Assembly: GCA_036388715.1 (NCBI GenBank)
Contig: DASVRH010000405.1
Span: 1-41,430, forward strand
Length of the DNA stretch: 41,430 nucleotides
Reading direction: 5' to 3'
Origin: Solirubrobacteraceae bacterium
Lineage (GTDB): Bacteria; Actinomycetota; Thermoleophilia; Solirubrobacterales; Solirubrobacteraceae
The notes beneath the pieces were generated by a model. It was not told the origin of the DNA and did not search any database. It saw only the letters and a program-made list of their open reading frames with translations. The translations under genes were made by a program, and so were the position numbers. This document shows positions 6,465 through 40,058 of this stretch, piece after piece. Each line of letters begins with the position of its first letter. The stretch's first letter is position 1.

Positions 6465-6493
6465 TCTCCGGCTTCAGGAATCATGACGGCTCG

Positions 6494-23805: not shown

Positions 23806-25410
23806 TTGCTCGATTCGCGGCCACCCGAAGGATCTCCGAGTCGCCGTAGGGCCCTCAGGGCGCTGCGTCGCCGGCTTCCCGTCTTCCTGCTCGTCGCGGT
23901 CGCCGTCCCGGCGACCTCCGTCGCGTACTCGCTGACGCAGGAGAAGCAGTACACCTCGAGCGCCGCGCTGCTGTTCCGCGACTCCGGCCTCGACCAGGCC
24001 ATCCTCGGGATCCAGACCTACCGCACGAGCGGCGACTCCGCCCGCGACGCGGCGACGAACCTCAACCTCGCGAACCTCGACGTCGTCGCCGACCGCACGG
24101 CGCGACGACTCGGCGGCACGCTCCGGCGCAACGACGTCAAGAGCCGCATGGACATCAGCCAGGAGGGGCTCTCGAACATCGTCCGCGTCGAGGCCACCGA
24201 CGCCGACCCGCGGTTCGCCGCCCGTCTGGCCACGACGTTCGCCGAGGAGTTCATCGGCTTCCGCGAGGAGTCCGACAGCAAGCGGCTGGCCGATGCGCAG
24301 CGGATCACCAAGCAGCAGTACGAGGCGCTGCCGGCGGTCACCAAGAACAGCCCGCAGGGCCGCCAGCTGCGAGACCGCTCGCAGCAGCTGGAGATCCTCG
24401 CCTCGCTGCAGACCGGCGGCGCGGAGCTCGTCCAGCGCGCCGACGTGCCGTCGAGCCCGTCGTACCCGCGGCCGCTGCGCAACGCGATCATCGGGCTGCT
24501 GCTGGGGCTGGGCCTGGGCCTGATGCTCGCCTACCTGATCGACCGCCTCGACCGCCGCATCCAGGACCCGGAGGAGATGCAGGAGGAGTTCGCCAAGCCG
24601 ATCCTCGCGACGATCCCGCACAGCGCGAAGCTCGACAAGGGCAAGGGCATCCTCGCCCAGGACGCCGCCACCGCCGAGGCCTTCCGGATGCTCCGGGCGA
24701 ACCTCCGCTACTTCAACGTCGACCGCGGCCTGCACACCGTCCTCATCACCTCCGCCGCGCCGGGCGACGGCAAGAGCACCGTCGCCGCCAACCTCGCCGC
24801 GGCGGCCGCCGCGAACGGCATGAAGACGCTGCTCGTCGAGGTCGACCTCCGGCACCCGACGATCGCCAAGGGCCTCGGCGTCCCCGCGACGCCGGGTCTC
24901 ACGCACGTGCTGGCGCGCGACGCGCAGCTGGACCTCGTCGTGCGGGCCGTGGCCGTCCAGGCCGGCGATCACGACGCGGCGTCCGGCCGCACGATGGACG
25001 TCGTCGTGTCGGGCCCGCTGCCGCCGAACCCGACCGACCTCATCGAGTCCGAGCGCATGCGCGACGTCCTCCGTCAGGCCGCGCAGGAGTACGAGTTCGT
25101 CGTCATCGACACGCCGCCGACGGCGGTCGTGCCGGACGCGATCCCGCTCGTCACCCAGGTCGACGGCGTGGTCGTGGTCGGCCGTGTCGGCAAGAGCACG
25201 CGTGAGGCGCTGGCGCACCTGCGCAAGCAGCTCGACAACCTCGACGCGCCCACGCTGGGCGTCGTCGTCAACGACGTCAGCTCGAAGGCCGCGGGCTACG
25301 CGTACGGCTACGGCTACGGCTACCACGCCGACCCGGACGCCGTCGACGCGTCGATGACGATGAACGGCACGGCCGGCCGCCCGGCCGAAGACGAGCTGCT
25401 GAAGCGCTAG
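23806..25410 (+). CDS. Polysaccharide co-polymerase (Wzz) fused to a BY-type tyrosine autokinase
   Basis: It has an N-terminal TM helix plus a Wzz-like segment, Walker A ITSAAPGDGKST, Walker A' LLVEVDLRHP, Walker B FVVIDTPP and a C-terminal Tyr cluster GYAYGYGYGYH. TTG start at 23806 has GGAGGGG upstream. Confidence 0.9.
   Translation: MLDSRPPEGSPSRRRALRALRRRLPVFLLVAVAVPATSVAYSLTQEKQYTSSAALLFRDSGLDQAILGIQTYRTSGDSARDAATNLNLANLDVVADRTARRLGGTLRRNDVKSRMDISQEGLSNIVRVEATDADPRFAARLATTFAEEFIGFREESDSKRLADAQRITKQQYEALPAVTKNSPQGRQLRDRSQQLEILASLQTGGAELVQRADVPSSPSYPRPLRNAIIGLLLGLGLGLMLAYLIDRLDRRIQDPEEMQEEFAKPILATIPHSAKLDKGKGILAQDAATAEAFRMLRANLRYFNVDRGLHTVLITSAAPGDGKSTVAANLAAAAAANGMKTLLVEVDLRHPTIAKGLGVPATPGLTHVLARDAQLDLVVRAVAVQAGDHDAASGRTMDVVVSGPLPPNPTDLIESERMRDVLRQAAQEYEFVVIDTPPTAVVPDAIPLVTQVDGVVVVGRVGKSTREALAHLRKQLDNLDAPTLGVVVNDVSSKAAGYAYGYGYGYHADPDAVDASMTMNGTAGRPAEDELLKR
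25294..25323 (+). repeat. Hexanucleotide tandem repeat (GGCTAC GCGTAC GGCTAC GGCTAC GGCTAC) encoding the kinase Tyr cluster
   Basis: Read directly from the sequence. There are three perfect consecutive GGCTAC units, plus one further perfect unit separated from them by a degenerate GCGTAC unit. Confidence 0.8.
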
Positions 25411-26192
25411 CCGCGGCGCCGGCGCAGGAACCGGCCGACCCCGCGGGGCCGTGCGATCGGCTCCGGGCGCTCGGGCAGGTCGACGCCCGCGAGCATCGCG
25501 CGCGGCGCGTGGAGCGTGTACCACCCGAGCTGCCCGAGCACGCCGGGGAGATCTTGCTCGAGGCTCTCGAACGCCGGCCGCAGCTCGGGCGGGCGCCGCG
25601 TCGCGTCGTGCGCGTCGCTCGCGACGTTGTGGACGAGGCCGCGCTCGTACAGCTCGATCGAGAAGGCCCGCACGGTGCTGCCGAACTGGCCGGCCAGCGA
25701 GGCCGCCGTCACCGAGCAGAGGATCCCGCGCTCGACGAGCTCGGCCAGGCGGTCGGCGTCGCCGATGAACGAGGGCGAGCGCTCCGGGTGGGCGAGGACC
25801 GGCCGGACGTTGCGGGTCTGGAGGTCGAAGAGCGTCTCCTCGAGCAGCTCGCCCACGGAGGTGTAGGGCGTCTCCACCAGCGCGTAGCGACCCTCTCCGA
25901 GGCACAGGGCGCCCAGGGTCTCGTCGTCGAGGTCACCGACCCGGGTGATGGCGATCTCGCCGCCCGCCACGACGCGCAGCGCCGAGCCGCCGGACGCGAC
26001 CGCGGCGTTGACCTCGGCGACGCGCTCCGGGATGAGGGACGGCGCGAACGGGTGGTCCTCGCGGATGTGCGGCGTCGCCACGATCGTCTCGATGCCGGCG
26101 GCGGCGGCGTGCCGGGCCAGGGCGAGGCTGCCGTCGAGGTCGGGCGGCCCGTCGTCGAGCCCGGGGAGGACGTGGCAGTGCAGGTCGATCAA
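25407..26192 (-). CDS. PHP-family (CpsB/YwqE-type) protein-tyrosine phosphatase
   Basis: The TTG start gives MIDLHCHVLPGLDDGP...TIVATPHI..., the signature N-terminus of CpsB/CapC phosphatases. It is convergent with the BY-kinase, with a 4-nt overlap. Confidence 0.9.
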   Translation of the reverse strand: MIDLHCHVLPGLDDGPPDLDGSLALARHAAAAGIETIVATPHIREDHPFAPSLIPERVAEVNAAVASGGSALRVVAGGEIAITRVGDLDDETLGALCLGEGRYALVETPYTSVGELLEETLFDLQTRNVRPVLAHPERSPSFIGDADRLAELVERGILCSVTAASLAGQFGSTVRAFSIELYERGLVHNVASDAHDATRRPPELRPAFESLEQDLPGVLGQLGWYTLHAPRAMLAGVDLPERPEPIARPRGVGRFLRRRRG

Positions 26193-26199
26193 CGCGCGG

Positions 26200-26889
26200 T
26201 CACGCGGCCGGCGGCGGCGTGACCCGGAAGCGCAGGACGCCGATCGCCTTCTCGGCGGGCTGCTCGTCCCACGGCCTGACGCCGAGCTCCGCGCGGCCGC
26301 CGAGCCGGCGCAGCAGCGCCGCTCGTCCCGGGGTGAGGGGGAACCGCAGCGTCGTGGTGACGCCCTCCATCGTCGGCACGCGGACGTCGCCCGACGGCGC
26401 CGCGTCGAGGCGTACGCCGTTGAGGTTCACGTAGATCTCCTGGCCCCCGGCGATGATGCCCTGCTCGGCGCCGGTCTCGTTGCGGACGCGCAGCCGGAGG
26501 ATCAGGGAGGCCGGGGTCGACGAGGCCGACAGGAGGCGCACCTGCGTGCCGCCGAGCAGCAGCGGGCGGTCCTCGCCGCCGAGCAGGAGCGTGGCGCTGC
26601 GCGTGCTGCAGCGGACGGCGTCGTCGGACGGGCCCGGGTCGGCGACCTCGCTGCACGGCGGGACGCCGCCCGCGTCCGACGAGGTCGTGGTGGGAGCCGT
26701 CGTCGTGGTCGTCCCGGGCACCGTGGCGCCCGCGGGCTCGTTGGTGCCGCTCTCGCGCGGCGGCGCGTCGTCGGCGCGGCCGAACGCAATGATCGCGACG
26801 TCCGCCGCGAGGACGAGCACGAGCACGGCGATGATCGCCTTCTCGAGCGCGGTCGCGCTGCTGAACCTCTTGCCGAATCCCGATGCCAT
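26200..26889 (-). CDS. Hypothetical single-pass membrane protein with a Thr/Pro-rich linker
   Basis: The ATG at 26889 is 3 codons inside the track's TTG start. One TM helix (IIAVLVLVLAADVAIIAF) is followed by a TTTTAPTTTS linker and a beta-rich domain. It lies upstream of the phosphatase in the same operon. Confidence 0.55.
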   Translation of the reverse strand: MASGFGKRFSSATALEKAIIAVLVLVLAADVAIIAFGRADDAPPRESGTNEPAGATVPGTTTTTAPTTTSSDAGGVPPCSEVADPGPSDDAVRCSTRSATLLLGGEDRPLLLGGTQVRLLSASSTPASLILRLRVRNETGAEQGIIAGGQEIYVNLNGVRLDAAPSGDVRVPTMEGVTTTLRFPLTPGRAALLRRLGGRAELGVRPWDEQPAEKAIGVLRFRVTPPPAA

Positions 26890-26985
26890 GGCTGCCAATC
26901 CCGACGGGGGAGCGCCGACGTTAGCCGAATCGGCCCCCCTCGCGACGGCAATGCACCTTCCGCACGTCCTTTAGGCTCCCTGCCG

Positions 26986-27933
26986 ATGCGCTCGACGATC
27001 GCCGCGGCTTTCAGCCTGCACCTCGATCTCGCGGCGGACGAGGCCATCCGGGCGCTGCGCGATGCCGGCGTGCCGGCGATCGTGCTCAAGGGGCCGTCGA
27101 TCGCGACGTGGCTGTATCCCGAGGGGACGCGCCGCTACAACGACATCGACCTCCTCGTGCCGGTGGACGGGCTGCCACGGACGCGCGCGGCGCTGGCGGG
27201 CCTCGGGTACAGCGGCGGCTACGCGCCGCTCGAGGAGGCGCGCGAGGCCCCGGGACACATCGACCACCACGCCGAGAACTGGCGCCGCCCGGGCTCGGGC
27301 ATCGACCTGCACTGGCGCATCCCCGGGATGACCGTGCCCGCCGAGCGGGCGTGGGAGCTCCTGGCCGACCACGTCGAGCCGCTGCCGGTCGGCTCGCGGA
27401 CCCTGCCGGTGCTGGACCACACGGCGCTCGCGCTGCACATCGCGCTGCACGCCGCCCAGCACGCCGGCGTCGTGGACGGGCACCCGCTCCGCGACCTCGA
27501 GCGCCTGGTGGCGACGCTGCCGGACGACGCGTGGCCGCAGGTCGAGCGCCTTGCGGCCGAGGTGGGGGCCACCGGCGCGCTCGCGGTCGGCCTGGGCCAG
27601 ACGCCCCAGGGCCGCGAGATCGCCGAGCGCCACGGCATCCGCGGCGGCATCGACGACCTCCACGTCGCGCTGAACGCCATCGGCGCGCCGCCGTCGACGG
27701 CGGGCCTGAGCACGCTCGGCCGGGGCGTGCTCGGCCGCGCGCCGGCCCGCGACGTCGCCCGCGTCCTCTTCCCGCCGCCGTCGCTGATGCGCGAGACGCA
27801 CCGGATCGCCGGGCGCGGGAGCGCCGGGCTGGCCCTCGCCTACGCCGCCCGCCTGGGCGACCGGCTGGTGCACCTGCCGCGCGCCGTCGTCGCGCTCAGG
27901 CGCGCCCGGCGGCTCCTGCGCGAGGGCGGCTAG
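26986..27933 (+). CDS. Nucleotidyltransferase family protein (PF14907-like uncharacterised nucleotidyltransferase)
   Basis: ATG at 26986 gives ...AIRALRDAGVPAIVLKGPSIATWLYPEGTRRYNDIDLLVPVDGLPRTRAALAGLGY...GIDLHWRIPG. This matches my memory of the family pattern (LKG...R...DIDLLV...LH). The track ORF starting at 25945 is a read-through. Confidence 0.75.
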   Translation: MRSTIAAAFSLHLDLAADEAIRALRDAGVPAIVLKGPSIATWLYPEGTRRYNDIDLLVPVDGLPRTRAALAGLGYSGGYAPLEEAREAPGHIDHHAENWRRPGSGIDLHWRIPGMTVPAERAWELLADHVEPLPVGSRTLPVLDHTALALHIALHAAQHAGVVDGHPLRDLERLVATLPDDAWPQVERLAAEVGATGALAVGLGQTPQGREIAERHGIRGGIDDLHVALNAIGAPPSTAGLSTLGRGVLGRAPARDVARVLFPPPSLMRETHRIAGRGSAGLALAYAARLGDRLVHLPRAVVALRRARRLLREGG

Positions 27934-28901
27934 AGCGCGGGGACGGGCTGCCGGCGCAGCCACTCGACGGTCTGCGCGACGCCCTCCTCGAGCCCGATCC
28001 GCGCCTCCCACCCGAGCAGCCGCTTCGCCTTCTCGACCGAAGGCCACCGGCGCACGACGTCGACCTCGAACGACGGGAGGTGCTCGACCTCGAAGGCGTC
28101 CGGATCCTCGCCGCAGGCGGCCCAGATGACCCGCGCGATGTCGAGCACCGTCCGCTCGTCGGCGGCGCTGACGTTGAAGTCCTCGTTCAGCCCGTTCGGA
28201 GAGGAGGTCGCGGTGACGATCCCGTCGGCGATGTCGTCGACGTGCGTCAGCGTGCGCGTCTGCGTGCCGTCGCCGAAGAGCTGGAGCGGCCGCTGGCCGC
28301 TGAGGACCTTGCGGATGACGTCGGGGACCCTGTGCGCGATCCCCGGCTCGGGCTCGGGCATCTCGCCGGGCCCGTAGGCGTTGAACGGGCGGCAGATCGT
28401 GAAGGGCAGGCCGTGCTCGTCGTGCGCGGCGCGGCAGTAGACCTCGCCGGTGAGCTTGCTGAACCCGTACGCCGAGCGCGGGATCGGCGTGTCGTGGATG
28501 TGCTCCTCGCTCGTGGGGTACTCGGTGGCGCGCTCGAAGACCATGCTCGAGCTCACGTACACGAAGCGCTCGGCGCCGTGGTCCAGCGAAGCGCGGATCA
28601 CCGCGTTGTAGAGCGCGTTGTTGACCTCGGTCAGGGTGTGGGGGAGGCGGTGGAAGTTCGCGATGCCGCCGACGATCGCCGCGAGGTGGATGACGTGGGA
28701 GCAGCCCTGGGTCGCCGCCCGCGCCTCGGAGATGTCGCGCAGGTCGCCGCGGTGCACCTCGCAGCCCTCGCGCATCCACTGGGGCGCCTCGCGCTGGTCG
28801 GAGACGCGCACGTCGAAGGCGGGGTCGCGCAGCAGCCGGCGCACGACGGCGGCGCCGATCGTGCCGGCTCCGCCGGTGACGAGAACCCTGCTCACGGCCA
28901 T
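27930..28901 (-). CDS. NAD-dependent epimerase/dehydratase family protein
   Basis: MAVSRVLVTGGAGTIGAAVV..., with YGFSK (YxxxK) and FGDGTQTRTLTHVDDIADG. Confidence 0.85.
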   Translation of the reverse strand: MAVSRVLVTGGAGTIGAAVVRRLLRDPAFDVRVSDQREAPQWMREGCEVHRGDLRDISEARAATQGCSHVIHLAAIVGGIANFHRLPHTLTEVNNALYNAVIRASLDHGAERFVYVSSSMVFERATEYPTSEEHIHDTPIPRSAYGFSKLTGEVYCRAAHDEHGLPFTICRPFNAYGPGEMPEPEPGIAHRVPDVIRKVLSGQRPLQLFGDGTQTRTLTHVDDIADGIVTATSSPNGLNEDFNVSAADERTVLDIARVIWAACGEDPDAFEVEHLPSFEVDVVRRWPSVEKAKRLLGWEARIGLEEGVAQTVEWLRRQPVPAL

Positions 28902-28930
28902 CGAGGCTAGCCATATACTCGCCGCCGCGA

Positions 28931-29563
28931 ATGACCGAGGCCCGCCCTGACCTGGTGGAGATCGAGGGCCTGGGGCGGAGCTTCGGCGCCCGCGAGGTCA
29001 TCCGCCGGCTGGATCTGCGCGTGCCCGCCGGCGCCCGTGTCGCGCTCCGTGGCCCGAACGGCGCGGGCAAGTCCACGGCCCTGCGCTGCGTCGCGGGCAC
29101 GCTCGCGCCCACGCGCGGGACGGTCGCCATCGACGGCTTCGCGGCGGGCAGCGTCCCCGCCCGGCGCCGGATCGGCGTCTCGTTCGCCCAGGAGCGCTCG
29201 TTCCACATGCGGCTGAACGGCCGGGCCAACCTGATCTTCTTCGCCCAGCTGCACCTCGGCAGCCGCCGCGCCGCGGTGCGCGAGGTGGACGCGCTGATCG
29301 AGGAGCTCGACCTGCGGGAGATCGCGCCCCGCCGGCTCGACCAGTGCTCGACCGGCATGGTCCAGCAGCTCGCGATCGCGCGGGCGCTGAGCGCCGACCC
29401 CGACGTGCTCCTGCTCGACGAGCCGACGCGGTCGCTCGACAAGGAGGCGATCGCGCGGTTCTGGGCGGCGATCGACCGGCGCCCGGACGCGGCGGTGCTC
29501 ATCGCGACGCACCGCGACGAGGATCTCGAGAGGTGCGGGAGCATCGTTGACTTCCCGACCTGA
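28931..29563 (+). CDS. ABC transporter ATP-binding protein
   Basis: Walker A is GPNGAGKST, the signature-like motif is CSTGMVQQLAIARAL, and Walker B is LLLDEPTRSLD. Confidence 0.9.
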   Translation: MTEARPDLVEIEGLGRSFGAREVIRRLDLRVPAGARVALRGPNGAGKSTALRCVAGTLAPTRGTVAIDGFAAGSVPARRRIGVSFAQERSFHMRLNGRANLIFFAQLHLGSRRAAVREVDALIEELDLREIAPRRLDQCSTGMVQQLAIARALSADPDVLLLDEPTRSLDKEAIARFWAAIDRRPDAAVLIATHRDEDLERCGSIVDFPT

Positions 29564-30365
29564 GCTGCCGCGCCTGGGCGCCATCGCCGCCTTCACGCGG
29601 CGGGATGCGTCGAACGCCTCCTCCTACCGGCTCGCGATCGCTCTCGATCTCGTCCTCAGCGTGCTGCCGCTGGTCATCTACTTCTACATCTCGAAGCTGT
29701 TCGACATCCCGCCGAGCGCCGCGCTGCAGAACGCGCCGTCGTACTTCGCGTTCGTCGTCGTCGGGCTCACGCTCGCGACCGTCGTGCAGGCGGGCACCAT
29801 CGGCATCGCGGCGACCCTGCGCCAGGAGCAGTTCACCGGCACGCTGGAGGCGATGGGCGTCAAGCCCGTGACGCCGATCGAGATGGCGCTCGGGATCGCT
29901 TCCTATCCGTTCCTGTTCGGCACGCTGCGCGCGACGCTCTACCTCGTGCTCGCGGCGACGGTCTTCGGCGCCGACTTCTCGGACGCGAGCGTGCCCGGCC
30001 TGGTGATCGGGTTCGCCGTGACCGGCCTCGCCCTCGTGGCGATCGGCATCGCGGTCGCCGCCGTGGTCTTCGTCGTGAAGCGCGGCGAGGTCTTCAGCAA
30101 CATCACCGTCTCGTTGCTCGTGATCCTCGGCGGCGCGTACTTCCCCGTCACGATCTTCCCGGCCGGCGTCGAGGGGGCGGCGAAGGTCGTGCCGACGCGC
30201 TTCGCCTTCGAGGGTCTCCGATCCGCGCTGTTCACGGGGACGGACTGGGCCGCGCCGATCCTCAAGCTGCTCGTGTTCGGTGCCCTCGCGCTGCCGTTGG
30301 CCCTGCTCTTCTTCAGCTGGGCGCTCGACCTCGCGAAGCGACGTGGCTCCCTCGGGCAGTACTGA
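29547..30365 (+). CDS. ABC-2 type transporter permease
   Basis: Six predicted hydrophobic helices. The start overlaps the ATPase gene by 17 nt. The TTG start is as given in the track. Confidence 0.8.
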   Translation: MTSRPELPRLGAIAAFTRRDASNASSYRLAIALDLVLSVLPLVIYFYISKLFDIPPSAALQNAPSYFAFVVVGLTLATVVQAGTIGIAATLRQEQFTGTLEAMGVKPVTPIEMALGIASYPFLFGTLRATLYLVLAATVFGADFSDASVPGLVIGFAVTGLALVAIGIAVAAVVFVVKRGEVFSNITVSLLVILGGAYFPVTIFPAGVEGAAKVVPTRFAFEGLRSALFTGTDWAAPILKLLVFGALALPLALLFFSWALDLAKRRGSLGQY

Positions 30366-31536
30366 GCAGCCGCTGCGCCCCACGCCGCTCGAGGTCGCGA
30401 GCGGCGTGGTCGTCGGCGAGGCGCCGGCGGCCGCCCCGCCCGACGCGGGCGGCGGGCTGAGCCCGCGACAGGCGCTCGAGCGGCTGGTGCTGCCGGCGTT
30501 GCTCCGGCCGCCGTGCCTCGTGAGCTTCTCCGGCGGTCGCGACTCGTCGCTCGTGCTGACGATCGCCGCGCATGTGGCGCGGCGCGAGGGGCTGCCGCTC
30601 CCGAGCCCCATCACCGTCCGGGTCGCCGACGCGCCCGCCGCGCAGGAGGACTGGCACCAGCAGACGCTCCTGCATCACCTCGGCCTCACGGACCAGTGGA
30701 TCAGGCTCGACGTCCCGCAGGGGGAGTTCGACTGGGTCGGCCCGGTCGCGGGACGAGTGCTGCGGCGGCACGGGCTCCTGTGGCCGCCCAACGCGTTCTT
30801 CCACGCGCCGCTCTTCGAGCAGGCGCGCGGCGGGTCGCTGCTCACCGGTGTCGGCGGCGACCAGATGATGGCGACGTGGCGCTCGGCACGGGCGATGCAG
30901 GTGGTGTCGGGTCGCGCGCGGCCGGCCCCCCGCGACGCCCTGCACGTCGGCCTCGCCTTCGCGCCGCGGGCGGTGCGAGCCGCGGTGCGGCGACGGCGCG
31001 ACGACGTCCCTTCGTGGCTGCGCCCGCCGGTGGCACGCGACGTCATGCGCAGGCGCGCGGCCGAGGACGCGAGCGAGCCCCGCCGCTGGGACCGCCGCCT
31101 GCCCTGGGTCGAGCGGCGGCGGATCCTCGCCGCGACACGCTGGAGCCTCGCGCTGATCGCGGCCGACTCCGGCACGCACGTGGCGCACCCGCTTGCCGAC
31201 CCGCTCTTCGTCGGCGCGCTGGCCCGGGCCGGCGGCGCCGGCGGTCTCGGCGACCGTCGCGCGATCATCAACATGCTTCTCTCCGACCTGCTCCCCGACG
31301 TCCTGCTCGGCCGCGCCGACAAGGCGTTGTTCCAGGAGGTGTTCTTCAGCGCGCCGTTCCGGGAGTTCGTGCGGACGTGGGACGGCCGCGGCGTCGACCC
31401 CGCGCTGGTGGACGTCGAGCGCCTTCGGGCGGAGTGGGCGCAGGAGGTGCCGCACTCCCGCACCGCGCTGGTGCTGCAGGCGGCCTGGCTCTCAGCCCAG
31501 GGCGGCGAGGCGGTCGACCGTGGCATCGAGCGCTGA
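30343..31536 (+). CDS. Asparagine-synthetase-domain (PP-loop, lasso-cyclase-like) protein lacking an N-terminal glutaminase-type domain, paralogue 1
   Basis: PP-loop is LVSFSGGRDSS. AsnB C-terminal blocks are HVAHPLADPLF and LLPDVLLGRADKALF. Similarity to paralogue 2 already covers PLEVASGVVVG, so the start must lie upstream of about 30385. GTG 30343 is chosen here and GTG 30280 is also possible. Confidence 0.8.
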   Translation: MAPSGSTEQPLRPTPLEVASGVVVGEAPAAAPPDAGGGLSPRQALERLVLPALLRPPCLVSFSGGRDSSLVLTIAAHVARREGLPLPSPITVRVADAPAAQEDWHQQTLLHHLGLTDQWIRLDVPQGEFDWVGPVAGRVLRRHGLLWPPNAFFHAPLFEQARGGSLLTGVGGDQMMATWRSARAMQVVSGRARPAPRDALHVGLAFAPRAVRAAVRRRRDDVPSWLRPPVARDVMRRRAAEDASEPRRWDRRLPWVERRRILAATRWSLALIAADSGTHVAHPLADPLFVGALARAGGAGGLGDRRAIINMLLSDLLPDVLLGRADKALFQEVFFSAPFREFVRTWDGRGVDPALVDVERLRAEWAQEVPHSRTALVLQAAWLSAQGGEAVDRGIER

Positions 31537-32367
31537 CCAGTCCCTCGGGCGCGTCAGCTCGTAGGCCGGGAGGCTCACGAGGTCGAGCAGGCCGACGGGA
31601 TCGTCGCCGGGCAGGATCGCCGAGCGCTGCGCGACGAGCGGAGCGAACCGCTCGGAGATCGGGACGGGCCGCAACGCGACGTCGTCGCCCCACGACAGCT
31701 TGATCCACCCGCCGAGGGGCACCGCCGCGGGGACCGGTGGCACCGCCAGGCGGCGACGCGTCGCGTCGCGCACGAGCGGCGCCGCGCCGTCGCCCGTCAG
31801 CCGCTCGGCGGCCTCCGGGCGCAGGTCGATCGCACGCGGCCCCGCGAGGGCGTCGCGACCCTCGATCACGAGGACATCATCGGTCACGATCGGCGCCCCG
31901 GCGAGGTGCAGCGCGGCCATCAGCGTGCTCTTCCCGGCCTCCCGCGCGCCGATCACCGCCCACGCCCTGCCGCCCGCGACGAACGCGCCCGCGTGGAGGC
32001 TCTCCCGGCCCGCCCAGCGCGCGAAGACCGCGCCCACCGGCGCCAGATAGGGGTGGACGAGCTCGTCGTCGGCGATCTCGTACGGGGTGACGAACGTGGC
32101 CGAGCGATCCTGCCGACGCAGGACCAGCGATCCGCCGCGCAGCAGCGGGAACGTCGCCTCGTCGCTGCCGATGTGGATCGGCAGCGACCCATCTCCGGTG
32201 CGGCGGTCGATGTCGATACCTCCCCAATCCTCACCAGCGCTGTTGAGAAGGCCTGAATCGACGTCACTCCGGATTTGCAACCCGTAGGCGCCTCGTAGTA
32301 GCGTGCCGACATTCTTCTGCTGCGGCGACGTCGCAGGAGGCCGCCAAGACTTCCAATCAGGAGGCAC
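31492..32367 (-). CDS. HPr-kinase-like (HprK-related) P-loop kinase
   Basis: VIGAREAGKSTLMAAL is the P-loop, followed by APIVTDDVLVI as in HPr kinase/phosphorylase relatives. Start is uncertain. GTG 32367 would sit 1 nt from the divergent peptide ATG, and its first codons CCT CCT are the antisense of that gene's AGGAGG. TTG 32280 is the only other in-frame candidate. Confidence 0.75.
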   Translation of the reverse strand: MPPDWKSWRPPATSPQQKNVGTLLRGAYGLQIRSDVDSGLLNSAGEDWGGIDIDRRTGDGSLPIHIGSDEATFPLLRGGSLVLRRQDRSATFVTPYEIADDELVHPYLAPVGAVFARWAGRESLHAGAFVAGGRAWAVIGAREAGKSTLMAALHLAGAPIVTDDVLVIEGRDALAGPRAIDLRPEAAERLTGDGAAPLVRDATRRRLAVPPVPAAVPLGGWIKLSWGDDVALRPVPISERFAPLVAQRSAILPGDDPVGLLDLVSLPAYELTRPRDWSALDATVDRLAALG

Positions 32368-32368
32368 G

Positions 32369-32545
32369 ATGCCGAAGGCAGAGTATTACGCGCCGTCGCT
32401 CACGACACTCGGGTCCGTGCAGGACCTGACCCTGGGCTCCGGTGGTGGTTTCCCCGACACCTGCGACCTCGCGGTCGGCTCGGTGATCGGCGCCGATCCG
32501 TGCTCCGGTCAGCCGGCGCCGGGCGGCATCGGGACGAAGCCGTAG
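32369..32545 (+). CDS. Lasso-type RiPP precursor peptide (58 aa)
   Basis: AGGAGG lies 4 nt upstream of the ATG. The product is MPKAEYYAPSLTTLGSVQDLTL-GSGGGFPDTCDLAVGSVIGADPCSGQPAPGGIGTKP. The leader fits YxxPxLx3Gx5Tx exactly, and the core starts with Gly1 and has Asp8. Confidence 0.8.
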   Translation: MPKAEYYAPSLTTLGSVQDLTLGSGGGFPDTCDLAVGSVIGADPCSGQPAPGGIGTKP

Positions 32546-32550
32546 GCAGT

Positions 32551-32571
32551 TCCGGCCGCGAACCGGCCGGA
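32551..32571 (+). promoter_or_regulatory. Intercistronic hairpin between the precursor gene and the downstream cyclase-like gene
   Basis: TCCGGCCG cgaac CGGCCGGA forms an 8-bp stem with a 5-nt loop. It starts 6 nt after the precursor stop and ends 6 nt before the ATG at 32578. Confidence 0.55.
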
Positions 32572-32577
32572 CACGCA

Positions 32578-33732
32578 ATGCAGGACGTGGCGGCGGGGAG
32601 ACCCGCCGTTCGTCTGTCCGGACTCGAGATCGCGACGCATCTCGTCTTCGGCCGTGCGCGACACACGCGCCTGCCGGAGGCGCGCGCGGAGTCGCCGCGC
32701 GAGGCGCTGGAGGCGGTCGTCCGCGAGGCGCTCGTGCGGCCGCCGTGCGTCGTCAGCTTCTCGGGCGGCCGCGACTCGTCGGTCGTCCTCGCGGTCGCCG
32801 CGCACGTCGCTCGCCGCGAGGGGCTCCCTCTGCCGGTCCCCGCGACGATCCGCGCGCCCGCGGTGGCCGGGAGCGTCGAGGACGACTGGCAGGAGCGGGT
32901 CGTCGCGCACCTGAGGCTGCCCGAGTGGCAGCGCGAGGTCGTCGACGACCAGCTCGACTTCGTCGGGCCCGTCGCCCGGGACGTCCTCGCGCGGCACGGA
33001 CTGCTGTTCCCCGCGCAGGTCCACTTCCACGTCCCCCTCCTGCGCCACGCGTCCGGCGGCACGCTGCTGACCGGCGCCGGCGGCGACGACGTGCTGGAGG
33101 CGGGCCCGCGGGCGGTGCTCGCCTTCGCCTGGCGCCGGTTCCGCGCGGGTCATCAGCGCACGGCGGTCACGCCGCTGATCGCGGCCGCGCCGCGGAGGGC
33201 CCAGGTCGCGTACGTACGGCGACGGCGCCGGCTGCGCGCCCCCTGGCTGACCGACCGGGCGCACCGGGAGCTCGACGATTCCATCGCCGAGCAGATCAGG
33301 CCGCCCGGCGCGGCGGCCGGGATGCGCTGGACGTACGAGCAGCGCTGGCTCGAGCTCGTCAAGGACAGCCTCGGCCTGCTCGCCACCGATGCGGGCGCCG
33401 CGATCGCCCACCCGGTCGCCGACGGCCGCTTCGTCGCCGCGCTGGCGGGCGCGGCGGGATGGGCCGGGCCGGGCGGGCGCTCGCGGCTGCTGCCGCGTCT
33501 GGCGGGCGACCTCCTGCCCCGCGACGTCCTGCAGCGCCGCGACAAGACGGCCTTCGCCGGCGTCTACTGGAACCGCCACACGCGCGAGCTGCTCGAGACG
33601 TGGCAGGGCGAGGGCGTCGACACCGACGTCGTGGACGTGGAGGCCCTGCGCGAGACGTGGGCGTCCCGCCACGTCAACATGGCGACCGCGCTGCTGCTGC
33701 AGTCAGTCTGGCTGGCCCGCCGCGGCGGCTGA
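32578..33732 (+). CDS. Asparagine-synthetase-domain (PP-loop, lasso-cyclase-like) protein lacking an N-terminal glutaminase-type domain, paralogue 2
   Basis: VVSFSGGRDSS, AIAHPVADGRF and LLPRDVLQRRDKTAF are colinear with, and highly similar to, the 30343-31536 product. ATG 32578 is chosen so the gene does not overlap the precursor gene. Confidence 0.8.
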   Translation: MQDVAAGRPAVRLSGLEIATHLVFGRARHTRLPEARAESPREALEAVVREALVRPPCVVSFSGGRDSSVVLAVAAHVARREGLPLPVPATIRAPAVAGSVEDDWQERVVAHLRLPEWQREVVDDQLDFVGPVARDVLARHGLLFPAQVHFHVPLLRHASGGTLLTGAGGDDVLEAGPRAVLAFAWRRFRAGHQRTAVTPLIAAAPRRAQVAYVRRRRRLRAPWLTDRAHRELDDSIAEQIRPPGAAAGMRWTYEQRWLELVKDSLGLLATDAGAAIAHPVADGRFVAALAGAAGWAGPGGRSRLLPRLAGDLLPRDVLQRRDKTAFAGVYWNRHTRELLETWQGEGVDTDVVDVEALRETWASRHVNMATALLLQSVWLARRGG

Positions 33733-34989
33733 GGCGTCCGGCGCCATGGCCGCGATCTCCGCGGCGTAGCCGAACACCTGCGCGGCGCCGAAGCAGTTCC
33801 ACGGGTCGACGACGAGCGCCTCCGGCGCCGCGAGGCGCGAGATCTCTCGAAGAGGACCGGCTCCACAAAATTCTCTGTGGTTCGTCGCGACGACGACGGC
33901 CTCGGCGCCCGCGACGGCCTCGTCGAAGGTCTGGGTCGGCGTGGGGACGTGCGGGTCGTGCACCGCGACCTCGACCAGCTCGCGCTCGAGCAGGCGCACG
34001 AGCTTGTGGGCCAGCGAGTCGCGCTCGTCGTCGGTGTCGGCCTTGAAGGCCAGGCCGAGCACGGCGACCTTGCGGCCGCGCAGCGCGCCGAGGCGGCGCT
34101 TCATGCCCTCGACGAGGAAGAGCGGCACGCTCTCGTTCACGCGCGAGACGGCGAGCAGCATGCCGGGCGCGTGCGAGCGCTCCTCGCTGAACGTGAAGTC
34201 CTTGCGCAGGCAGGTGCCGGCGGTGAAGCCCGGCATCTTGATCCCGCCCCTGGGGTAATCGTGGTTGATGAGGTCGATGACCTCGAAGACGTTCGCCTCG
34301 TACTGCTCGCAGTCCATCATCAGGAGGTTGGGCAGCGCGAACGTCGTGTAGCGCAGGATGTTGGTCCAGATCTTCGCGAGCTCGGCCTGGACGGGCGTGG
34401 TCTCGACGACGTCGGACTCGTAGACGTCGAACAGCTCGCGGCACACCTGCGTCGAGCGGTCGCCGACGCCGCCGACGATCTGCGGCAGCGAGTCGATCTC
34501 CTCGAAGAACTTGCCGGCCGCGATGCGCTCGGGGGCGTGCGAGACGAAGAGGTCCTCGCCGACCTTGAAGCCGAGCTTCGACTCGAGGTAGCCGGCGACG
34601 AACTCGGTCGTGCCCGGGGCGATCGTCGAGCGCAGGACGACGGAGTGGCCGGGCTCGAGGACCGGCAGGAGGTCGTCGAGGGCCGAGCGGATGTCGCGCA
34701 TGTCGATCTCGATGTGCGAGAACGACGGCGTCCCGATCGTGAGGATGATGTGCTTGGCCCGGGCGGCGTCGGCGACGCGGTCGGAGGCCTCCAGCCCGCC
34801 GGAGGCGTGCACGCGGCCCATGACCTCGTCGCCGCCGGTCTCCTCGAACGGCATGCGGCCGTCGCGGACGGCGGCCAGCCGCTCGGGGTCGCGGTCGACG
34901 CCCACGACGCTCAGGCCGCGGTCGGCGAGCGACAGGGCGAGCGGCAGGCCGACCCGGCCCAGCCCGATGACGGAGACGTCGCGGTCCAC
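33703..34989 (-). CDS. Nucleotide-sugar dehydrogenase (UDP-glucose/GDP-mannose dehydrogenase family, WecC-like)
   Basis: VSVIGLGRVGLPLA is the Rossmann motif, GFTAGTCLRKD holds the catalytic Cys, and LGLAFKADTDDERDS is the C-terminal domain motif. GTG start at 34989. Confidence 0.9.
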   Translation of the reverse strand: MDRDVSVIGLGRVGLPLALSLADRGLSVVGVDRDPERLAAVRDGRMPFEETGGDEVMGRVHASGGLEASDRVADAARAKHIILTIGTPSFSHIEIDMRDIRSALDDLLPVLEPGHSVVLRSTIAPGTTEFVAGYLESKLGFKVGEDLFVSHAPERIAAGKFFEEIDSLPQIVGGVGDRSTQVCRELFDVYESDVVETTPVQAELAKIWTNILRYTTFALPNLLMMDCEQYEANVFEVIDLINHDYPRGGIKMPGFTAGTCLRKDFTFSEERSHAPGMLLAVSRVNESVPLFLVEGMKRRLGALRGRKVAVLGLAFKADTDDERDSLAHKLVRLLERELVEVAVHDPHVPTPTQTFDEAVAGAEAVVVATNHREFCGAGPLREISRLAAPEALVVDPWNCFGAAQVFGYAAEIAAMAPDASAAAAGQPD

Positions 34990-35000
34990 GTCCCGTCAGG

Positions 35001-35828
35001 CTATCGACGGGTGCTGCTGTACTGGCGCGCGAAGCCCGCGACGAAGCGCGGGTTGTAGCGCGCGTAGCGGCGCCACAGGCGCCGCGGCTCCTTCGAGAGG
35101 CGGTAGACCCACTCGAGGCCGATGTTCTGCATCCAGGTCGGCGCCTGGGGCACGAGGCCGGCGTGGAAGTCGAAGGCGGCGCCGACGCCGATCAGCATGG
35201 GGGCGTCGAGGAGCGGGCGCATCTCGCGCATCCAGATCTCCTGCTTGGGCTGGCCGGTGCCGACCCACACGACGTCCGCCTTGGAGCGGTTGATGTCGTG
35301 GACGACCCAGTCGCGCTCCTCGTCGGAGAGCGGCCGGAAGGGCGGGGAGTAGCCGCCGACGATCTGCAGGCCGGGGTAGCGGCGGCGGAGCTTGAGCGCG
35401 AGCTCGACGAGCGCGCCCTGGTTGCGGCCGCCGTAGAGGTACATGCGGGCGCCGGTGGTCGCCGAGCGCTGGCAGTACTTGGCCATCAGGTCGGGGCCGT
35501 ACACGCGGGTGGCCTGCTCGTGGCCGAGCGCCTTGAGCGCCCAGACCAGCGGCTGCCCGTCGGGGACCACGAGGCTGACGTCGGCGACGGCGTCGCGCGT
35601 GGCCTGGTCCTCCTGGGCGACCATGACGAGGTGCACCGCGGCGGCGCTCAGCGTCGCCCGGCCGCCCGCGGCCACGGTCTGGTCGATCCAGTCCATCGTC
35701 CGCTCGTAGTCGGCGAGCGCGAGCGGGACGCCGAGGACCTCGGCGGTGGCCGGCTTGCCGGCGGCGCCGTTCTGATGGCCGTTGACGGCCTGGTCGGCGC
35801 GCGTGATGTCGATGAGCGGCTGGTTCAT
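35001..35828 (-). CDS. WecG/TagA/CpsF-family glycosyltransferase (GT26)
   Basis: VLGVPLA..., VVPDGQPLVWA, YLYGG, VVWVGTGQPKQEIWM and IGVGAAFDFHAG are characteristic of GT26. ATG 35828 is preferred; the track start at 35912 adds 28 aa. Confidence 0.85.
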   Translation of the reverse strand: MNQPLIDITRADQAVNGHQNGAAGKPATAEVLGVPLALADYERTMDWIDQTVAAGGRATLSAAAVHLVMVAQEDQATRDAVADVSLVVPDGQPLVWALKALGHEQATRVYGPDLMAKYCQRSATTGARMYLYGGRNQGALVELALKLRRRYPGLQIVGGYSPPFRPLSDEERDWVVHDINRSKADVVWVGTGQPKQEIWMREMRPLLDAPMLIGVGAAFDFHAGLVPQAPTWMQNIGLEWVYRLSKEPRRLWRRYARYNPRFVAGFARQYSSTRR

Positions 35829-35980
35829 AGGGGGATCGCCGGTACAGAACGGGCCGCCGGCGGAAAAGTCGCGTCCTTGCTGCGGGACGAACGGCAAGAG
35901 CGCGCGGGACATCCAAGAAGTCGCGCTCGCCTCGTAGCATAGCCGCCCATGGCGCCGCCCAAACGCAAGCGATCTTGCGC

Positions 35981-37046: not shown

Positions 37047-39563
37047 ATGCTCCGCCGCGCCCTCGCCGTCGCGTTCCTCGCGACGCTCCTCCTCGCCCCT
37101 CCCGCCTCCGCGATCGACTTCGTCGACGAGGACTTCGCCGCCGGCTTCGAGGAGGTGGTGGTCGCCGAGGGCCTCAACGAGCCGACCGGGATGGCGTACG
37201 GACCCGGTGGCCGGCTCTACGTCGCCGAGCGCGAGGGGCGCGTGCGGGTCGTCGAGCCGGACGGGACGCTGGCCCCCGACCCCGTCGTCGACATCTCCGA
37301 CCACGTCAACTCGTACTCCGAGCGCGGGCTGCTCGGGATCGCGGTCGACAACGACTTCGCCTCCCACCCGTTCCTCTACCTGCTGTACACGTACGAGCAC
37401 GACGGGGAGGACCCGTTGGCGGCGAAGACGTCCCGCCTCACCCGCGTGCGCCTCGACGAGCTGAACCCCTCGGTCGCCTACGCCCCGTTCGAGGAGACGG
37501 TGCTGATCGGCGACGACGACGACGACGGCGACGAGCTCTGCGACATCGGCGAGGTGTGCATCCCGGCCGACGACGAGTATCACTCGATCGGCACCGTCCG
37601 CCAGGGTCCCGACGGGACGCTCTACGCGGGCAGCGGGGACTCCAACGCGACCGGGGACTTCTGGGCGCAGTCCGACGCGATGCGCCCGTTCGACCCTCAG
37701 AGCCTCGCCGGCAAGATCATGCGCGTCGATCGCGACGGCGACCCGGTCGAGCCCTCCTTCTGCACCGACCCCGCGCAGCCGTGCTCGCACGTCTTCGCGA
37801 TGGGCTTCCGCAACCCGTACCGCTTCAGCGTCCGCGGGAACGCGGATCTCATCGTCGGCGACGTCGGGTCCTCGCAGTACGAGGAGGTCAACCGCGTGCT
37901 CCCCGGGCGCGACCACGGCTGGCCGTGCTGGGAGGGCTACGGGTGGACGGCGATCTACCAGGGGCGCGAGGAGTGCCAGGAGCGCTACGCCCTCACTCCG
38001 CCGCCGTCGAACCTGACCTCGCCGTGGATCGTCTACGGCGGCAGCCGCGCGGTCGGGCAGGGCGCCGCGGTCTACGCGGGCCCGACGTACACGGGCGCGA
38101 CCTTCCCGCCGAAGTTCGCCGCGCAGCAGCGCTTCTTCTACGGCGACACCGTGCGCGGGTGGCTGAACACCGCGTACTTCGACGGCGGCGCGGTGCGGAC
38201 GAAGTCGTTCGCGACCGGCGTGAACTACGCGGTCGAGATGATCCAGTCGCCGGAGGGCGACGTCGTCTACAGCGAGTACGGCGGCGCGATCAAGCGGATC
38301 CGCTTCGCGTGCGCGCCGGACGGCACCGCGTGCAACAAGACGCCGATCGCGCGCCTCTCCGCGATCCCCGACCACGGCGAGGACGTCGACGAGATCACCT
38401 TCTCGGCGGCCGGCAGCTCCGACCCAGACGGCGACGCCCTGACCTACAGCTGGGACTTCGACGGCGACGGCGACTTCGAGCTCACCGGGCCCGACGCCAC
38501 GCCGCCACCGCAGTCCTTCGCGCCCGGCCGCTACGTCCCGCGCGTCGTCGTGGGTGACGGCTCGCGCACCGCCGTCGCGCAGCAGGTCGTCTTTCCCGGC
38601 TACGACCCGCCGTCGGTCACGATCGACCCGGTCGACGAGGAGTTCCGCGCCGGCGAGTCGGTCGACGTGAGCGGCTCGGCGAGCGATCCGAACACGCCGG
38701 CCCAGGCGCTCGACCCGCTCGTCTGGAAGGTCACGCTGCTGCACAATGACCACGTCCATCCGCGCGGGCGCTGGGTCGGGCCGACCGCGACGTTCAAGAC
38801 GCTCGACAGCCACGACGCCGACTCCGGCTACCTCGTCGAGCTGACCGCGCGCAACGCGATCGGGATGACGGCGACGAAGTCGGTCCAGCTGCATCCGAAG
38901 ACGGTGAAGGTGACGTTGGCCAGCGACCCGCCGGGGGCGCGGCTGCTCTACGGCGCGCGGGAGGGCTGGGCGCCGTTCACGATCGACGCGGCGGTGAACT
39001 ACACGACGCCGCTGACCGCCGACTACTCCGTCTACTACGAGGGCGAGTGGCTGCCGTTCTCGCACTGGGAGCACACGCCGTCGCAGCAGTTCTCGAACGT
39101 GAAGGTCCCGGACCACGACGTCACGTACACCGCGGTCTACGGCCCGCGGAGCACGAAGGAGCGCCCGCCGGGAGAGCTCGCGCCGCCGCTCGAGCCGCCG
39201 GGCCCGCCGATCGGCCCGTTCCAGCCGCCGCGCGGCCCGCGGGGGACGCTGGGCGCGTTCCGCGGTCGTCGCGTGAGCGGCACCGCCACCGCTCCGCTCG
39301 GCGTCCGCCGGGTGCGGATCGCGCTGGCCCGCCGCGCCGGCCGCCGCTGCCGCCTCCTCCGCGCCGGGCGCTTCACGAAGCCCACCCGCTGCTCGCGCCG
39401 GACGTGGACGAAGGCGAGGCTCGGCCGCGGCAAGGCCACCCGCGCCTGGTCGCTCACCCTCCGCAAGCCGCTCCGCCCGGGCCGCTACACGATCGTCGTC
39501 CGCGTCGAGGACATGGCGGGCGCCACCGCCAACCGCTCCTTCGCCCGCCGCCTCACGCGCTAG
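37047..39563 (+). CDS. Secreted PQQ-type soluble sugar dehydrogenase beta-propeller + PKD + conserved middle module + Arg-rich C-terminal domain
   Basis: Signal peptide is MLRRALAVAFLATLLLAPPASA. GSDH-like motifs are GLNEPTGMAYGPGGRLYVAEREGRVRVV, ERGLLGIAVD, LAGKIMRV and FAMGFRNPYR. The PKD block reads ITFSAAGSSDPDGDALTYSWDFDGDG. It is a paralogue of the N-terminal two thirds of the 13190-16873 product. Confidence 0.9.
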   Translation: MLRRALAVAFLATLLLAPPASAIDFVDEDFAAGFEEVVVAEGLNEPTGMAYGPGGRLYVAEREGRVRVVEPDGTLAPDPVVDISDHVNSYSERGLLGIAVDNDFASHPFLYLLYTYEHDGEDPLAAKTSRLTRVRLDELNPSVAYAPFEETVLIGDDDDDGDELCDIGEVCIPADDEYHSIGTVRQGPDGTLYAGSGDSNATGDFWAQSDAMRPFDPQSLAGKIMRVDRDGDPVEPSFCTDPAQPCSHVFAMGFRNPYRFSVRGNADLIVGDVGSSQYEEVNRVLPGRDHGWPCWEGYGWTAIYQGREECQERYALTPPPSNLTSPWIVYGGSRAVGQGAAVYAGPTYTGATFPPKFAAQQRFFYGDTVRGWLNTAYFDGGAVRTKSFATGVNYAVEMIQSPEGDVVYSEYGGAIKRIRFACAPDGTACNKTPIARLSAIPDHGEDVDEITFSAAGSSDPDGDALTYSWDFDGDGDFELTGPDATPPPQSFAPGRYVPRVVVGDGSRTAVAQQVVFPGYDPPSVTIDPVDEEFRAGESVDVSGSASDPNTPAQALDPLVWKVTLLHNDHVHPRGRWVGPTATFKTLDSHDADSGYLVELTARNAIGMTATKSVQLHPKTVKVTLASDPPGARLLYGAREGWAPFTIDAAVNYTTPLTADYSVYYEGEWLPFSHWEHTPSQQFSNVKVPDHDVTYTAVYGPRSTKERPPGELAPPLEPPGPPIGPFQPPRGPRGTLGAFRGRRVSGTATAPLGVRRVRIALARRAGRRCRLLRAGRFTKPTRCSRRTWTKARLGRGKATRAWSLTLRKPLRPGRYTIVVRVEDMAGATANRSFARRLTR

Positions 39564-39731: not shown

Positions 39732-40058
39732 ATGTCACGCATATATCGAGCCGCCCCTCGCCACGCCCTTCCCCGTCCCCTGAGCCTCGCGCAGAAGCGG
39801 GCGCTGGTGGCGCTGGCGCGGGCGTGTCCGGAGATGGGGGACGAGGCGGATGTGGCGGCGGTCGCGCGGGTGAGCGGGCTGAAGCCGAACGCGGCGGTGC
39901 TGGCGCTCGAGGGACTGGTCCGCCGCAGGCTCGCCGTCGGTCACGACGACCCCGCCGCCTGGTCGCCGACGATGAGCGGCCGGGGGATGGCGAAGTACGT
40001 CCGCGCGGCCGAGCCGCGCACGCGGCCGGTCGCCGGATCGCGTAAGCCAGAAGACTGA
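39732..40058 (+). CDS. Small winged-helix (LexA-N-terminal/MarR-like) putative DNA-binding protein, paralogue 1
   Basis: LSLAQKRALVALARA...VAAVARVSGLKPNAAVLALEGLVRRRLAV...DPAAWSPT is colinear with the next gene product. The pattern resembles the LexA N-terminal wHTH. Confidence 0.55.
   Translation: MSRIYRAAPRHALPRPLSLAQKRALVALARACPEMGDEADVAAVARVSGLKPNAAVLALEGLVRRRLAVGHDDPAAWSPTMSGRGMAKYVRAAEPRTRPVAGSRKPED

Follow-up and report, generated by a model that had tools for sequence, protein, structure and literature searches.

The 41,430-nucleotide contig DASVRH010000405.1 of a soil Solirubrobacteraceae bacterium (assembly GCA_036388715.1), the whole of which was analysed and which we refer to as the window, carries at 26986-33732, between two blocks of sugar genes, a module for a lasso-type peptide made by the ribosome and modified after translation (RiPP). 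The module (Table 1) consists of a precursor gene (A), two genes for Asn-synthetase-like cyclases (C1 and C2), a kinase gene (K), a nucleotidyltransferase gene (N), a sugar epimerase gene, and a pair of ATP-binding cassette (ABC) exporter genes; it has no gene for B1, the PqqD-type RiPP recognition element (RRE), or for B2, the leader peptidase. An earlier reading of the same sequence (the original prediction) had listed these eight genes, all of which were recovered at or very close to the places where it had put them.

Table 1. Features of the window, with the RiPP module first, then its sugar-gene neighbours and more distant genes.
Feature	Coordinates	Strand	Remarks
N, NTP_transf_5 nucleotidyltransferase-like tailoring enzyme, 315 aa	26986-27933	+	PF14907, E 1.8e-28
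Extended short-chain dehydrogenase/reductase (SDR), nucleoside diphosphate-sugar epimerase/dehydratase	27930-28901	-	PF01370, E 8e-53
ABC transporter ATPase, exporter D1	28931-29563	+	PF00005, E 2e-26
ABC-2 permease, exporter D2	29547-30365	+	PF01061, E 1.6e-10; SagH-type permease match, 1.2e-9
C1, truncated Asn-synthetase-like macrolactam synthetase	30343-31536	+	PF00733, E 1e-6; start uncertain (open reading frame opens at 30280)
K, HprK/PEPCK-fold P-loop kinase	31492-32310	-	Walker A GAREAGKST; longest open reading frame extends to 32367
A, 58-aa precursor	32369-32545	+	Shine-Dalgarno AGGAGG at 32359-32364, 4 nt before ATG
GC-rich hairpin	32546-32576	+	between A stop and C2 start; -18.2 kcal/mol, z -3.1, 0/200 shuffles
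C2, second truncated Asn-synthetase-like enzyme	32578-33732	+	PF00733, E 1.6e-11
Wzz/BY-kinase	23806-25410	+	upstream; synteny kept in L001, L007, L087
CpsB phosphatase	25407-26192	-	upstream; synteny kept in L001, L007, L087
Membrane-anchored 232-aa protein	26200-26898	-	upstream; N-terminal hydrophobic segment; no Pfam match
UDP-glucose/GDP-mannose dehydrogenase	33703-34989	-	downstream, abuts C2; synteny in L001, L007, L087
WecG/TagA glycosyltransferase	35001-35912	-	downstream; synteny in L001, L007, L087
Wzy_C polymerase/ligase	3560-5458		
Extracytoplasmic function (ECF) sigma factor	6452-6979		adjoins Wzy_C gene
Large, apparently secreted protein	13190-16873	-	GSDH beta-propeller, PKD domains, FG-GAP repeats
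Large, apparently secreted protein	37047-39563	+	GSDH beta-propeller, PKD domains
Small open reading frame	39732-40058	+	paralogue-like to the next
Small open reading frame	40108-40380	+	matches MarR_2

C1 and C2 are 42% identical to one another, and each has Asn_synthase (PF00733) as its sole Pfam domain, with an SGGRDSS PP-loop. At 384-397 aa they have the roughly 385-400 aa originally predicted; the Asn_synthase domain begins near residue 67-78, there is no N-terminal glutaminase-like domain, and no NCBIfam lasso-cyclase model matches either protein. The AlphaFold model of C2 (predicted local distance difference test score, pLDDT, 89) finds TsnB9, ASNS, beta-lactam synthetase, and carbapenam synthetase in Foldseek searches, and phmmer searches of C2 and K against the sequences in the PDB gave nothing useful. 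C1 is 45-49% identical to the single-copy cyclases of related clusters and is the positional orthologue of that single cyclase, with C2 being an addition downstream of A, together with which it is transcribed. The two fall in separate sub-branches of a neighbour-joining tree, and the duplication is therefore old. Of 80 residues conserved in the family, C1 keeps 74 and C2 keeps 79, including the SGGRDS PP-loop and GGD.

The precursor is made up of a leader, MPKAEYYAPSLTTLGSVQDLTL, and a core, GSGGGFPDTCDLAVGSVIGADPCSGQPAPGGIGTKP. Counting back from the predicted cleavage site, at which YYAPSLTTLGSVQDLTL is followed by the first Gly of the core, the leader has Tyr at -17, Pro at -14, Leu at -12, and Thr at -2, the motif quoted for lasso leaders (PMC12070363). 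The leader had been called a textbook one, which is right for this motif, but the curated hidden Markov model (HMM) NF033521 (lasso_leader_L3) is narrowly missed, with 18.1 bits against a cutoff of 19; the precursors of the related loci L088 and L090 pass it with 22.8 and 29.9 bits. A leader HMM of the family matches the window leader with an E-value of 1.8e-6, and leaders from the group of loci without B1 and B2 to which the window belongs score within the range of those from loci that have both. The core begins with Gly1 and has Asp8 (Asp9 in L088), and so has a small first residue and an acidic residue among positions 7-9. Five orthologous cores have Asp8, Asp/Glu11, Asp21, two Cys, and a tail Lys in common. 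The C-terminus is rich in Gly and Pro (PAPGGIGTKP) and has no follower helix; the core ends in -GTKP and those of orthologues in -TKP, -IKP, or -TQA, while many other precursors of the family end in -NAS(P) or -CS(S/P). An apparent repeat within the core (DLTL/GSGGGFPDTC versus DLAV/GSVIGADPC), considered as two modules for two cyclases, was rejected, as 323 of 2,000 shuffles reach its score and the orthologues do worse.

Between A and C2 lies a predicted hairpin, which is possibly an attenuator that balances precursor against enzyme. At the same site L090 has a G+C-rich stem with a U run behind it, the weaker stems of L001 (28 of 200 shuffles) and L088 (16 of 200) are not significant, and L007 has none.

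B1 and B2 were sought with several profiles. Pfam scans of every coding-like open reading frame in the window detected neither PF05402 (PqqD) nor PF13471 (B2), and HMMs built from 78 PqqD and 65 B2 proteins encoded beside homologous cyclases gave best E-values of 2.7 (PqqD) and 0.34 (B2) when run on all six-frame open reading frames of at least 25 aa. The absence of both genes had been predicted, with a profile search set beforehand as the test that could refute it, and it stands. The permease and C1 genes overlap, and therefore leave no room for a B1 or B2 remnant. Concealed equivalents were also considered and rejected: the N-terminal part of K is all-beta, as in PEPCK and HprK, the first 56 residues of C2 hold two short helices, and the N of L088, a locus with B1 and B2, is no different in length, so that none of the three is a candidate RRE. 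Nor is there a protease or RRE signature in the genes peculiar to the B-less clade, namely the epimerase, CpsB, the membrane-anchored 232-aa protein beside it, and a 193-aa open reading frame of L001/L002.

The order C1-K-A-C2 without B genes recurs in two metagenomes (L001 and L002), a Solirubrobacteraceae metagenome-assembled genome (MAG; L007), and a 1.3-Mb JGI contig (L087); four or five assemblies that are independent of one another share it, with proteins 59-69% identical and all frames open; the genome closest to the window is a Solirubrobacteraceae MAG at 63% identity. The next relatives, L088/L089 (whose K is 56% identical) and L090, possess both cyclases and a homologous precursor, and in addition PqqD and B2. 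These two genes lie between the permease and C1 in L088/L089; in L090, B2 abuts C1 and PqqD is just upstream of the ABC pair. The L088 B2 passes NF033537, and its PqqD is nearest to lasso PqqD models. After the Thr-Leu that ends the leader, the L088 precursor continues with GAGMQGFPDDCELATGSVVGEDPCSG and ends in IIKP, and that of L090 continues with GSGVGFPDTCDLAVGPVLGADPCKGQMGKTQA; with the window they give the consensus G.G..GFPD.C[DE]LA.G.V.G.DPC. As these sister loci combine the same cyclases and homologous precursors with B1 and B2, the ancestor had both genes and the window clade deleted them, and on this comparison of loci the B-less state is a derived and recent loss common to the window, L001/L002, and L007/L087.

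The module that remains is under purifying selection, with ratios of nonsynonymous to synonymous substitution (dN/dS) of 0.27-0.36 for A (the lowest among its genes), 0.33-0.42 for K, 0.41-0.58 for C1, 0.37-0.65 for C2, and 0.43-0.61 for N. Orthologues of A vary chiefly at third codon positions and retain the Shine-Dalgarno sequence.

The window locus belongs to a large family. C2 has at least 877 homologues, nearly all of them Asn_synthase-only proteins of ~340-450 aa, and an exhaustive profile search returned 1,064 clusters at 50% identity (E <= 1e-30), the best 150 of which are mostly 380-420 aa. Short cyclases, first noticed in this locus, are thus the norm of a family of ~1,000 clusters, and TriC of the triculamin pathway is a precedent. 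A few family cyclases (representatives P0384, P0424, P0438, P0455, and P0456) are 537-768 aa long with the cyclase match at one end, and are therefore fusions with a further domain. The genomic relatives belong to the Actinomycetota (Solirubrobacterales, Gaiellales, Acidimicrobiia, and some Actinomycetes), with Nocardioides mangrovicus, Jiangella asiatica, and Phytoactinopolyspora halotolerans among the cultured carriers. No homologue was found in a plasmid collection; a metagenome scan with C1 alone found no relative, and one with an alignment found nothing closer than ~51%, so that neither added a member to the B-less clade.

Pfam annotation of the neighbourhoods reveals a recurrent module of ABC, ABC-2, NTP_transf_5, PqqD, Transglut_core3, a short cyclase, K on the opposite strand, and one or two small open reading frames. 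Among 86 loci with at least 4 kb on both sides, K is present in 81, a precursor matching the family leader HMM in 66, and PqqD and B2 together in 64; 13 have neither B gene, mostly with the leader kept, and 11 have two cyclases. NCBI labels the B2 proteins of the family 'lasso peptide biosynthesis B2 protein'. The co-occurrence of the AsnB-like genes with a leader-bearing peptide, K, and N across these relatives supports the assignment to a lasso-type RiPP module. The same counts answer the synteny check proposed earlier, for AsnB-like genes that travel with sugar genes only: they travel with the peptide gene, which effectively rules out a role in sugar amidation.

K was described at the outset as an HPr-kinase-like P-loop protein, and this description holds at the level of the predicted fold: the AlphaFold model (pLDDT 94) matches PEPCK (4e-8) and HprK/P (1kkl, 2e-5) in Foldseek. 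By sequence there is no significant Pfam match and PF07475 was not detected, the match to the NCBIfam model HprK_rel_A (TIGR04352) is weak (22.8 bits, cutoff 200), and a profile of the K family matches the Hpr(Ser) kinase structure 3tqf weakly (E 0.0015). We found 436 homologues of K, some of them in Micromonospora. The gene is present as proposed, but its start is more likely the GTG at 32310 than 32367, because the length of the orthologues is 262-266 aa and the envelope of the HMM match opens near 32325. The longest K frame would abut the precursor ATG head to head and leave no space for a promoter; with the GTG start, a divergent intergenic region of 58 nt separates the two genes.

The translation of N contains the nucleotidyltransferase motif KGPS...NDIDLLV, and N is a conserved module member in relatives. 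The epimerase gene lies between N and the ABC genes in the B-less clade only, being present in L001, L007, and L087 and absent from that position in L088 and L090. The ABC/ABC-2 pair is also a conserved part of the family module and likely exports the peptide; the permease gene overlaps both its neighbours, an arrangement that suggests translational coupling.

Beyond the window clade, many family precursors have a Lys exactly six residues before a conserved Asp. This K-x5-D motif is present in 91 of 127 distinct precursors, compared with 9.2 on average and at most 17 in shuffled cores, and examples such as DKKxGxSDGFTF... and CxWxKTIGPPDY... come from loci numbered between L003 and L171, among them L004:10049-10432, L017:12221-12400, and L003:12099-12305. 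The Lys lies at predicted core positions 1-20. Fifty-seven of the motif precursors lack an acidic residue (Asp or Glu) at core positions 7-9 and are hard to square with an N-terminal ring of 7-9 residues; their sequences suggest that in much of the family the ring joins the side chains of Lys and Asp. The window clade has no K-x5-D and has instead a canonical-looking Gly1...Asp8.

Codon-position G+C profiles and Pfam matches show that nearly the whole window, which is 72% G+C, is a polysaccharide locus. It encodes a Bac_transf priming transferase, Wzy_C, eight extended-SDR epimerases/dehydratases, GT1 glycosyltransferases, a flippase, Wzz/BY-kinase, CpsB phosphatase, a UDP-sugar dehydrogenase, WecG, and an ECF sigma factor. 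The module lies in the same exopolysaccharide (EPS) context in all members of the B-less clade, and those of L088 and L090 are also in EPS loci, while the family clusters L004 and L006 lie away from sugar genes. The 232-aa protein encoded beside CpsB has a single weak, sub-threshold NCBIfam match (E 0.019); a gene is found at this position in L001, L007, and L087 as well, though not in L088. A position within an EPS locus had been thought unusual; it recurs family-wide, with Bac_transf within 10 kb in 26 of 92 loci, as a raw count, and this recurrence suggests that the family is linked systematically to glycan assembly genes. Genomes have just a few Bac_transf genes each, so the enrichment near the clusters is probably large. 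In L050:7390-11134 the frames for Bac_transf, a GFO_IDH oxidoreductase, and the cyclase abut or overlap, L051:7405-11137 has the same gene spacing, and L003:1957-4478 is a Bac_transf-GFO_IDH pair.

Several other features of these loci deserve mention. The ECF sigma factor gene adjoins the Wzy_C polymerase/ligase gene in the window and likewise in the sister locus L090 (L090:2291-5367), and this pairing suggests that the EPS and RiPP parts are regulated together. Two large, apparently secreted proteins are encoded in the EPS locus, both with a glucose/sorbosone-dehydrogenase (GSDH) beta-propeller and PKD domains, and the first also with FG-GAP repeats. The two small adjacent open reading frames near the end of the window look like paralogues with a common ...AQK.AL.A... 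motif, and the pair recurs in L001. Elsewhere in the family, genes for adenosine 5'-phosphosulfate kinase and ATP sulfurylase (L033:6788-9291 and L091:15986-17666) directly adjoin the clusters, with a TauE exporter also in L033, a hint that the products or glycans of some members are sulfated.

Together these observations lead us to propose that the locus is a functional, leader-dependent lasso-type RiPP module for which B1 and B2 are supplied from elsewhere in the genome, a reading to which we assign a probability of about one half. The family module comprises the ABC-2 exporter, N, PqqD (B1), B2, a truncated cyclase, K, and A. One sub-lineage acquired another cyclase downstream of A and with it the order C1-K-A-C2; within this sub-lineage the window clade lost B1 and B2 in a clean deletion between the permease and C1. 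The 58-aa precursor is predicted to be recognised through its unchanged Y-17/P-14/L-12/T-2 leader and cut after Thr-Leu, most likely by B1 and B2 encoded elsewhere. Unchanged recognition and removal of the leader is the simplest reading because the leader keeps the residues that RRE and B2 read and the sister clade has B1 and B2; we therefore do not favour the different maturation logic on a lasso-type leader that the original prediction had also entertained. One MAG, JAJYMB01 (isolate DBS2-4.bin103), has a complete cluster with PqqD, B2, K, N, and C on one contig (L043) and a B-less satellite with A, C, and K on another (L049), and is a precedent for B1 and B2 acting in trans; the 13 loci with neither B gene, most of which retain the leader, are a further one, and genomes of this group often hold several family clusters.

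One cyclase would adenylate Asp8 and close a Gly1-Asp8 macrolactam (through Asp9 in L088). We speculate that the other cyclase makes a further amide, which might link the tail Lys with conserved Asp11 or Asp21; the presence of two amines, the Gly1 alpha-amine and the Lys epsilon-amine, alongside two cyclases would fit a bicyclic product, and a Cys10-Cys23 disulfide may form as well. K and N would phosphorylate and glycosylate the peptide, as for paeninodin and pseudomycoidin, with the adjacent epimerase and the surrounding sugar genes supplying the nucleotide sugar, and the ABC-2 pair would export the product.

Several points weigh against this proposal. The window is the entire contig, and the supply of B1 and B2 in trans is a step that we infer. 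A search with the L088 B2 gave no match assignable to the 1.3-Mb contig of L087 (1,303,129 bp) or to contigs of 50,369, 81,641, or 41,430 bp, a weak negative since the contig records may cover cluster representatives only (the 361-aa C2 of L087 matches P0006 in length and source, and P0006 is listed with a longest contig of 3.7 kb). The precursor has a -TKP end instead of the C-terminal Ser acceptor used by PadeK-type kinases, there is no invariant Ser or Thr in the core among the five orthologues, and the position of the tail Lys varies between them. In addition, triculamin is made without B1 and B2 by a truncated cyclase (PMC12070363).

This last precedent also underlies the strongest competing explanation, in which maturation is independent of B proteins: the truncated cyclases would dock the leader directly, perhaps with one paralogue as leader binder, and the leader would be trimmed by housekeeping proteases or retained, with the epsilon-amine of the tail Lys as nucleophile. 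We regard it as a serious contender, though distinctly less probable than supply in trans. The cyclase of the pseudomycoidin pathway needs neither leader nor peptidase (PMC6993621), the window cluster is conserved under selection although it is B-less in cis, 13 of the 86 family loci have neither gene, and the conserved Lys six residues before Asp in family precursors hints at Lys-directed chemistry of short cyclases. However, the sister clade, whose cyclases are the same two and whose precursor is homologous, keeps B1 and B2, the B-less clade shows no change at the leader sites read by B1 (YxxP) and B2 (Thr-2) in canonical pathways, and the precursor has a Gly/Pro-rich C-terminus where triculamin has a follower helix. 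A broader version, in which the truncated cyclases of the family close Lys(epsilon)-Asp rings and the window clade matures its peptide without a dedicated peptidase into a phospho-glycosylated product coupled to the EPS pathway, seems to us rather unlikely.

A connection to the glycan pathway could also be direct, the peptide being phospho-glycosylated by K and N and then joined to, or priming or capping, the polysaccharide, with the second AsnB-like enzyme perhaps forming an amide to a uronic acid or amino sugar. The EPS locus shared by all clade members and by L088 and L090, the frequency of Bac_transf near family clusters with its tight spacing in L050 and L051, the UDP-sugar dehydrogenase gene that abuts C2, and the ability of PsmN to put hexoses on phosphoserine (PMC6993621) are all consistent with such a role. 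This is nevertheless purely gene context, with the Bac_transf frequency a raw count; L004 and L006 lie away from sugar genes, and an ABC-2 exporter belonging to the module itself suggests a free peptide, so we consider the idea improbable. It is more improbable still that the AsnB-like proteins are EPS sugar or polysaccharide amidotransferases and the small frame incidental: the location among sugar genes and the PF00733 domain would fit, but the proteins have no glutaminase domain, their homologues travel with precursor, K, and the PqqD-B2 pair, and the small frame is a conserved precursor gene that has both a Shine-Dalgarno sequence and a leader of canonical lasso type. Decay after the loss of B1 and B2 has in its favour that these two genes are essential in canonical pathways, and is equally improbable; the module is not decaying, because its frames are intact at 59-69% identity in independent assemblies, dN/dS is below 1 (0.27-0.65) for every gene, and conserved residues and catalytic motifs are kept.

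The locus is a candidate second B-less lasso type, with truncated and duplicated cyclases, no B genes, and a fully canonical leader. If B1 and B2 are simply encoded elsewhere, it comes down to a split gene cluster of a kind that genome-mining tools would miss. The sister loci, with the same layout plus B1 and B2, are a natural control, and their comparison makes testable the long-standing questions of why lasso pathways need the RRE-peptidase pair and what the N-terminal domain of the cyclase does. The wider family is of interest too, with some members in cultured Micromonospora, N. mangrovicus, and J. asiatica; many of its precursors fall outside the 7-9-residue ring rule, and the frequent polysaccharide-priming neighbours hint that RiPPs and cell-surface glycans are connected in a way that has gone unrecognised.

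Until 2025, triculamin was the sole lasso pathway known without RRE and leader peptidase (PMC12070363). Its biosynthetic gene cluster in Streptomyces triculaminicus (triA, triC, triD, and triT) has neither RRE/B1 nor B2, and its cyclase lacks an N-terminal domain of ~150-250 aa and is predicted to bind directly to a recognition segment within the precursor (PMC12070363; bioRxiv 10.64898/2026.07.03.736388); according to its authors in 2025, non-canonical lasso clusters with a non-triculamin precursor had not been found (PMC12070363). The window shares with triculamin an origin in Actinomycetota, the absence of B1 and B2 from the cluster, and an N-terminally truncated macrocyclase, a comparison made from the published description. 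In contrast to the leaderless triculamin precursor, with its C-terminal follower helix and cationic PGDG core, that of the window starts with a canonical leader, its tail is rich in Gly and Pro, and its core is neutral to acidic with an FPD motif; the window also has two cyclases together with K, N, and the epimerase, and most relatives of its cyclases are accompanied by B1 and B2.

K- and N-type enzymes are known to phosphorylate a lasso precursor and then to hexosylate the phosphate (PMC8498205, PMC6993621), and the window resembles the paeninodin and pseudomycoidin clusters in having K and N beside a lasso-type precursor, a cyclase, and an exporter. Those clusters, however, come from Bacillota and Pseudomonadota, encode B1 and B2 in cis, and use a C-terminal Ser as acceptor, whereas in the window the cyclases are truncated and duplicated, B genes are absent, the peptide ends in -TKP, the exporter is of the ABC-2 type, and the context is EPS. 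With canonical split-B lasso clusters of actinobacteria it shares the leader motif, Gly1 and Asp8, and a cyclase homologous to Asn synthetase, and its sisters have an NF033537-type B2 and a lasso-type PqqD; it differs in having no B1 or B2, a second cyclase, and a cyclase length of ~390 aa outside the NCBIfam lasso-cyclase models. Class V lasso peptides such as lariocidin B and gelatinamin A provide a precedent for a second macrocycle through a Lys side chain, but there the ring is closed by a secreted clostripain-like transpeptidase and not by a second ATP-dependent cyclase (PMC13178200); Pfam scans of the window genes detected no clostripain-like peptidase. The locus is an uncommon variant of the lasso kind, neither canonical, nor triculamin-type, nor fully of the paeninodin/pseudomycoidin type.

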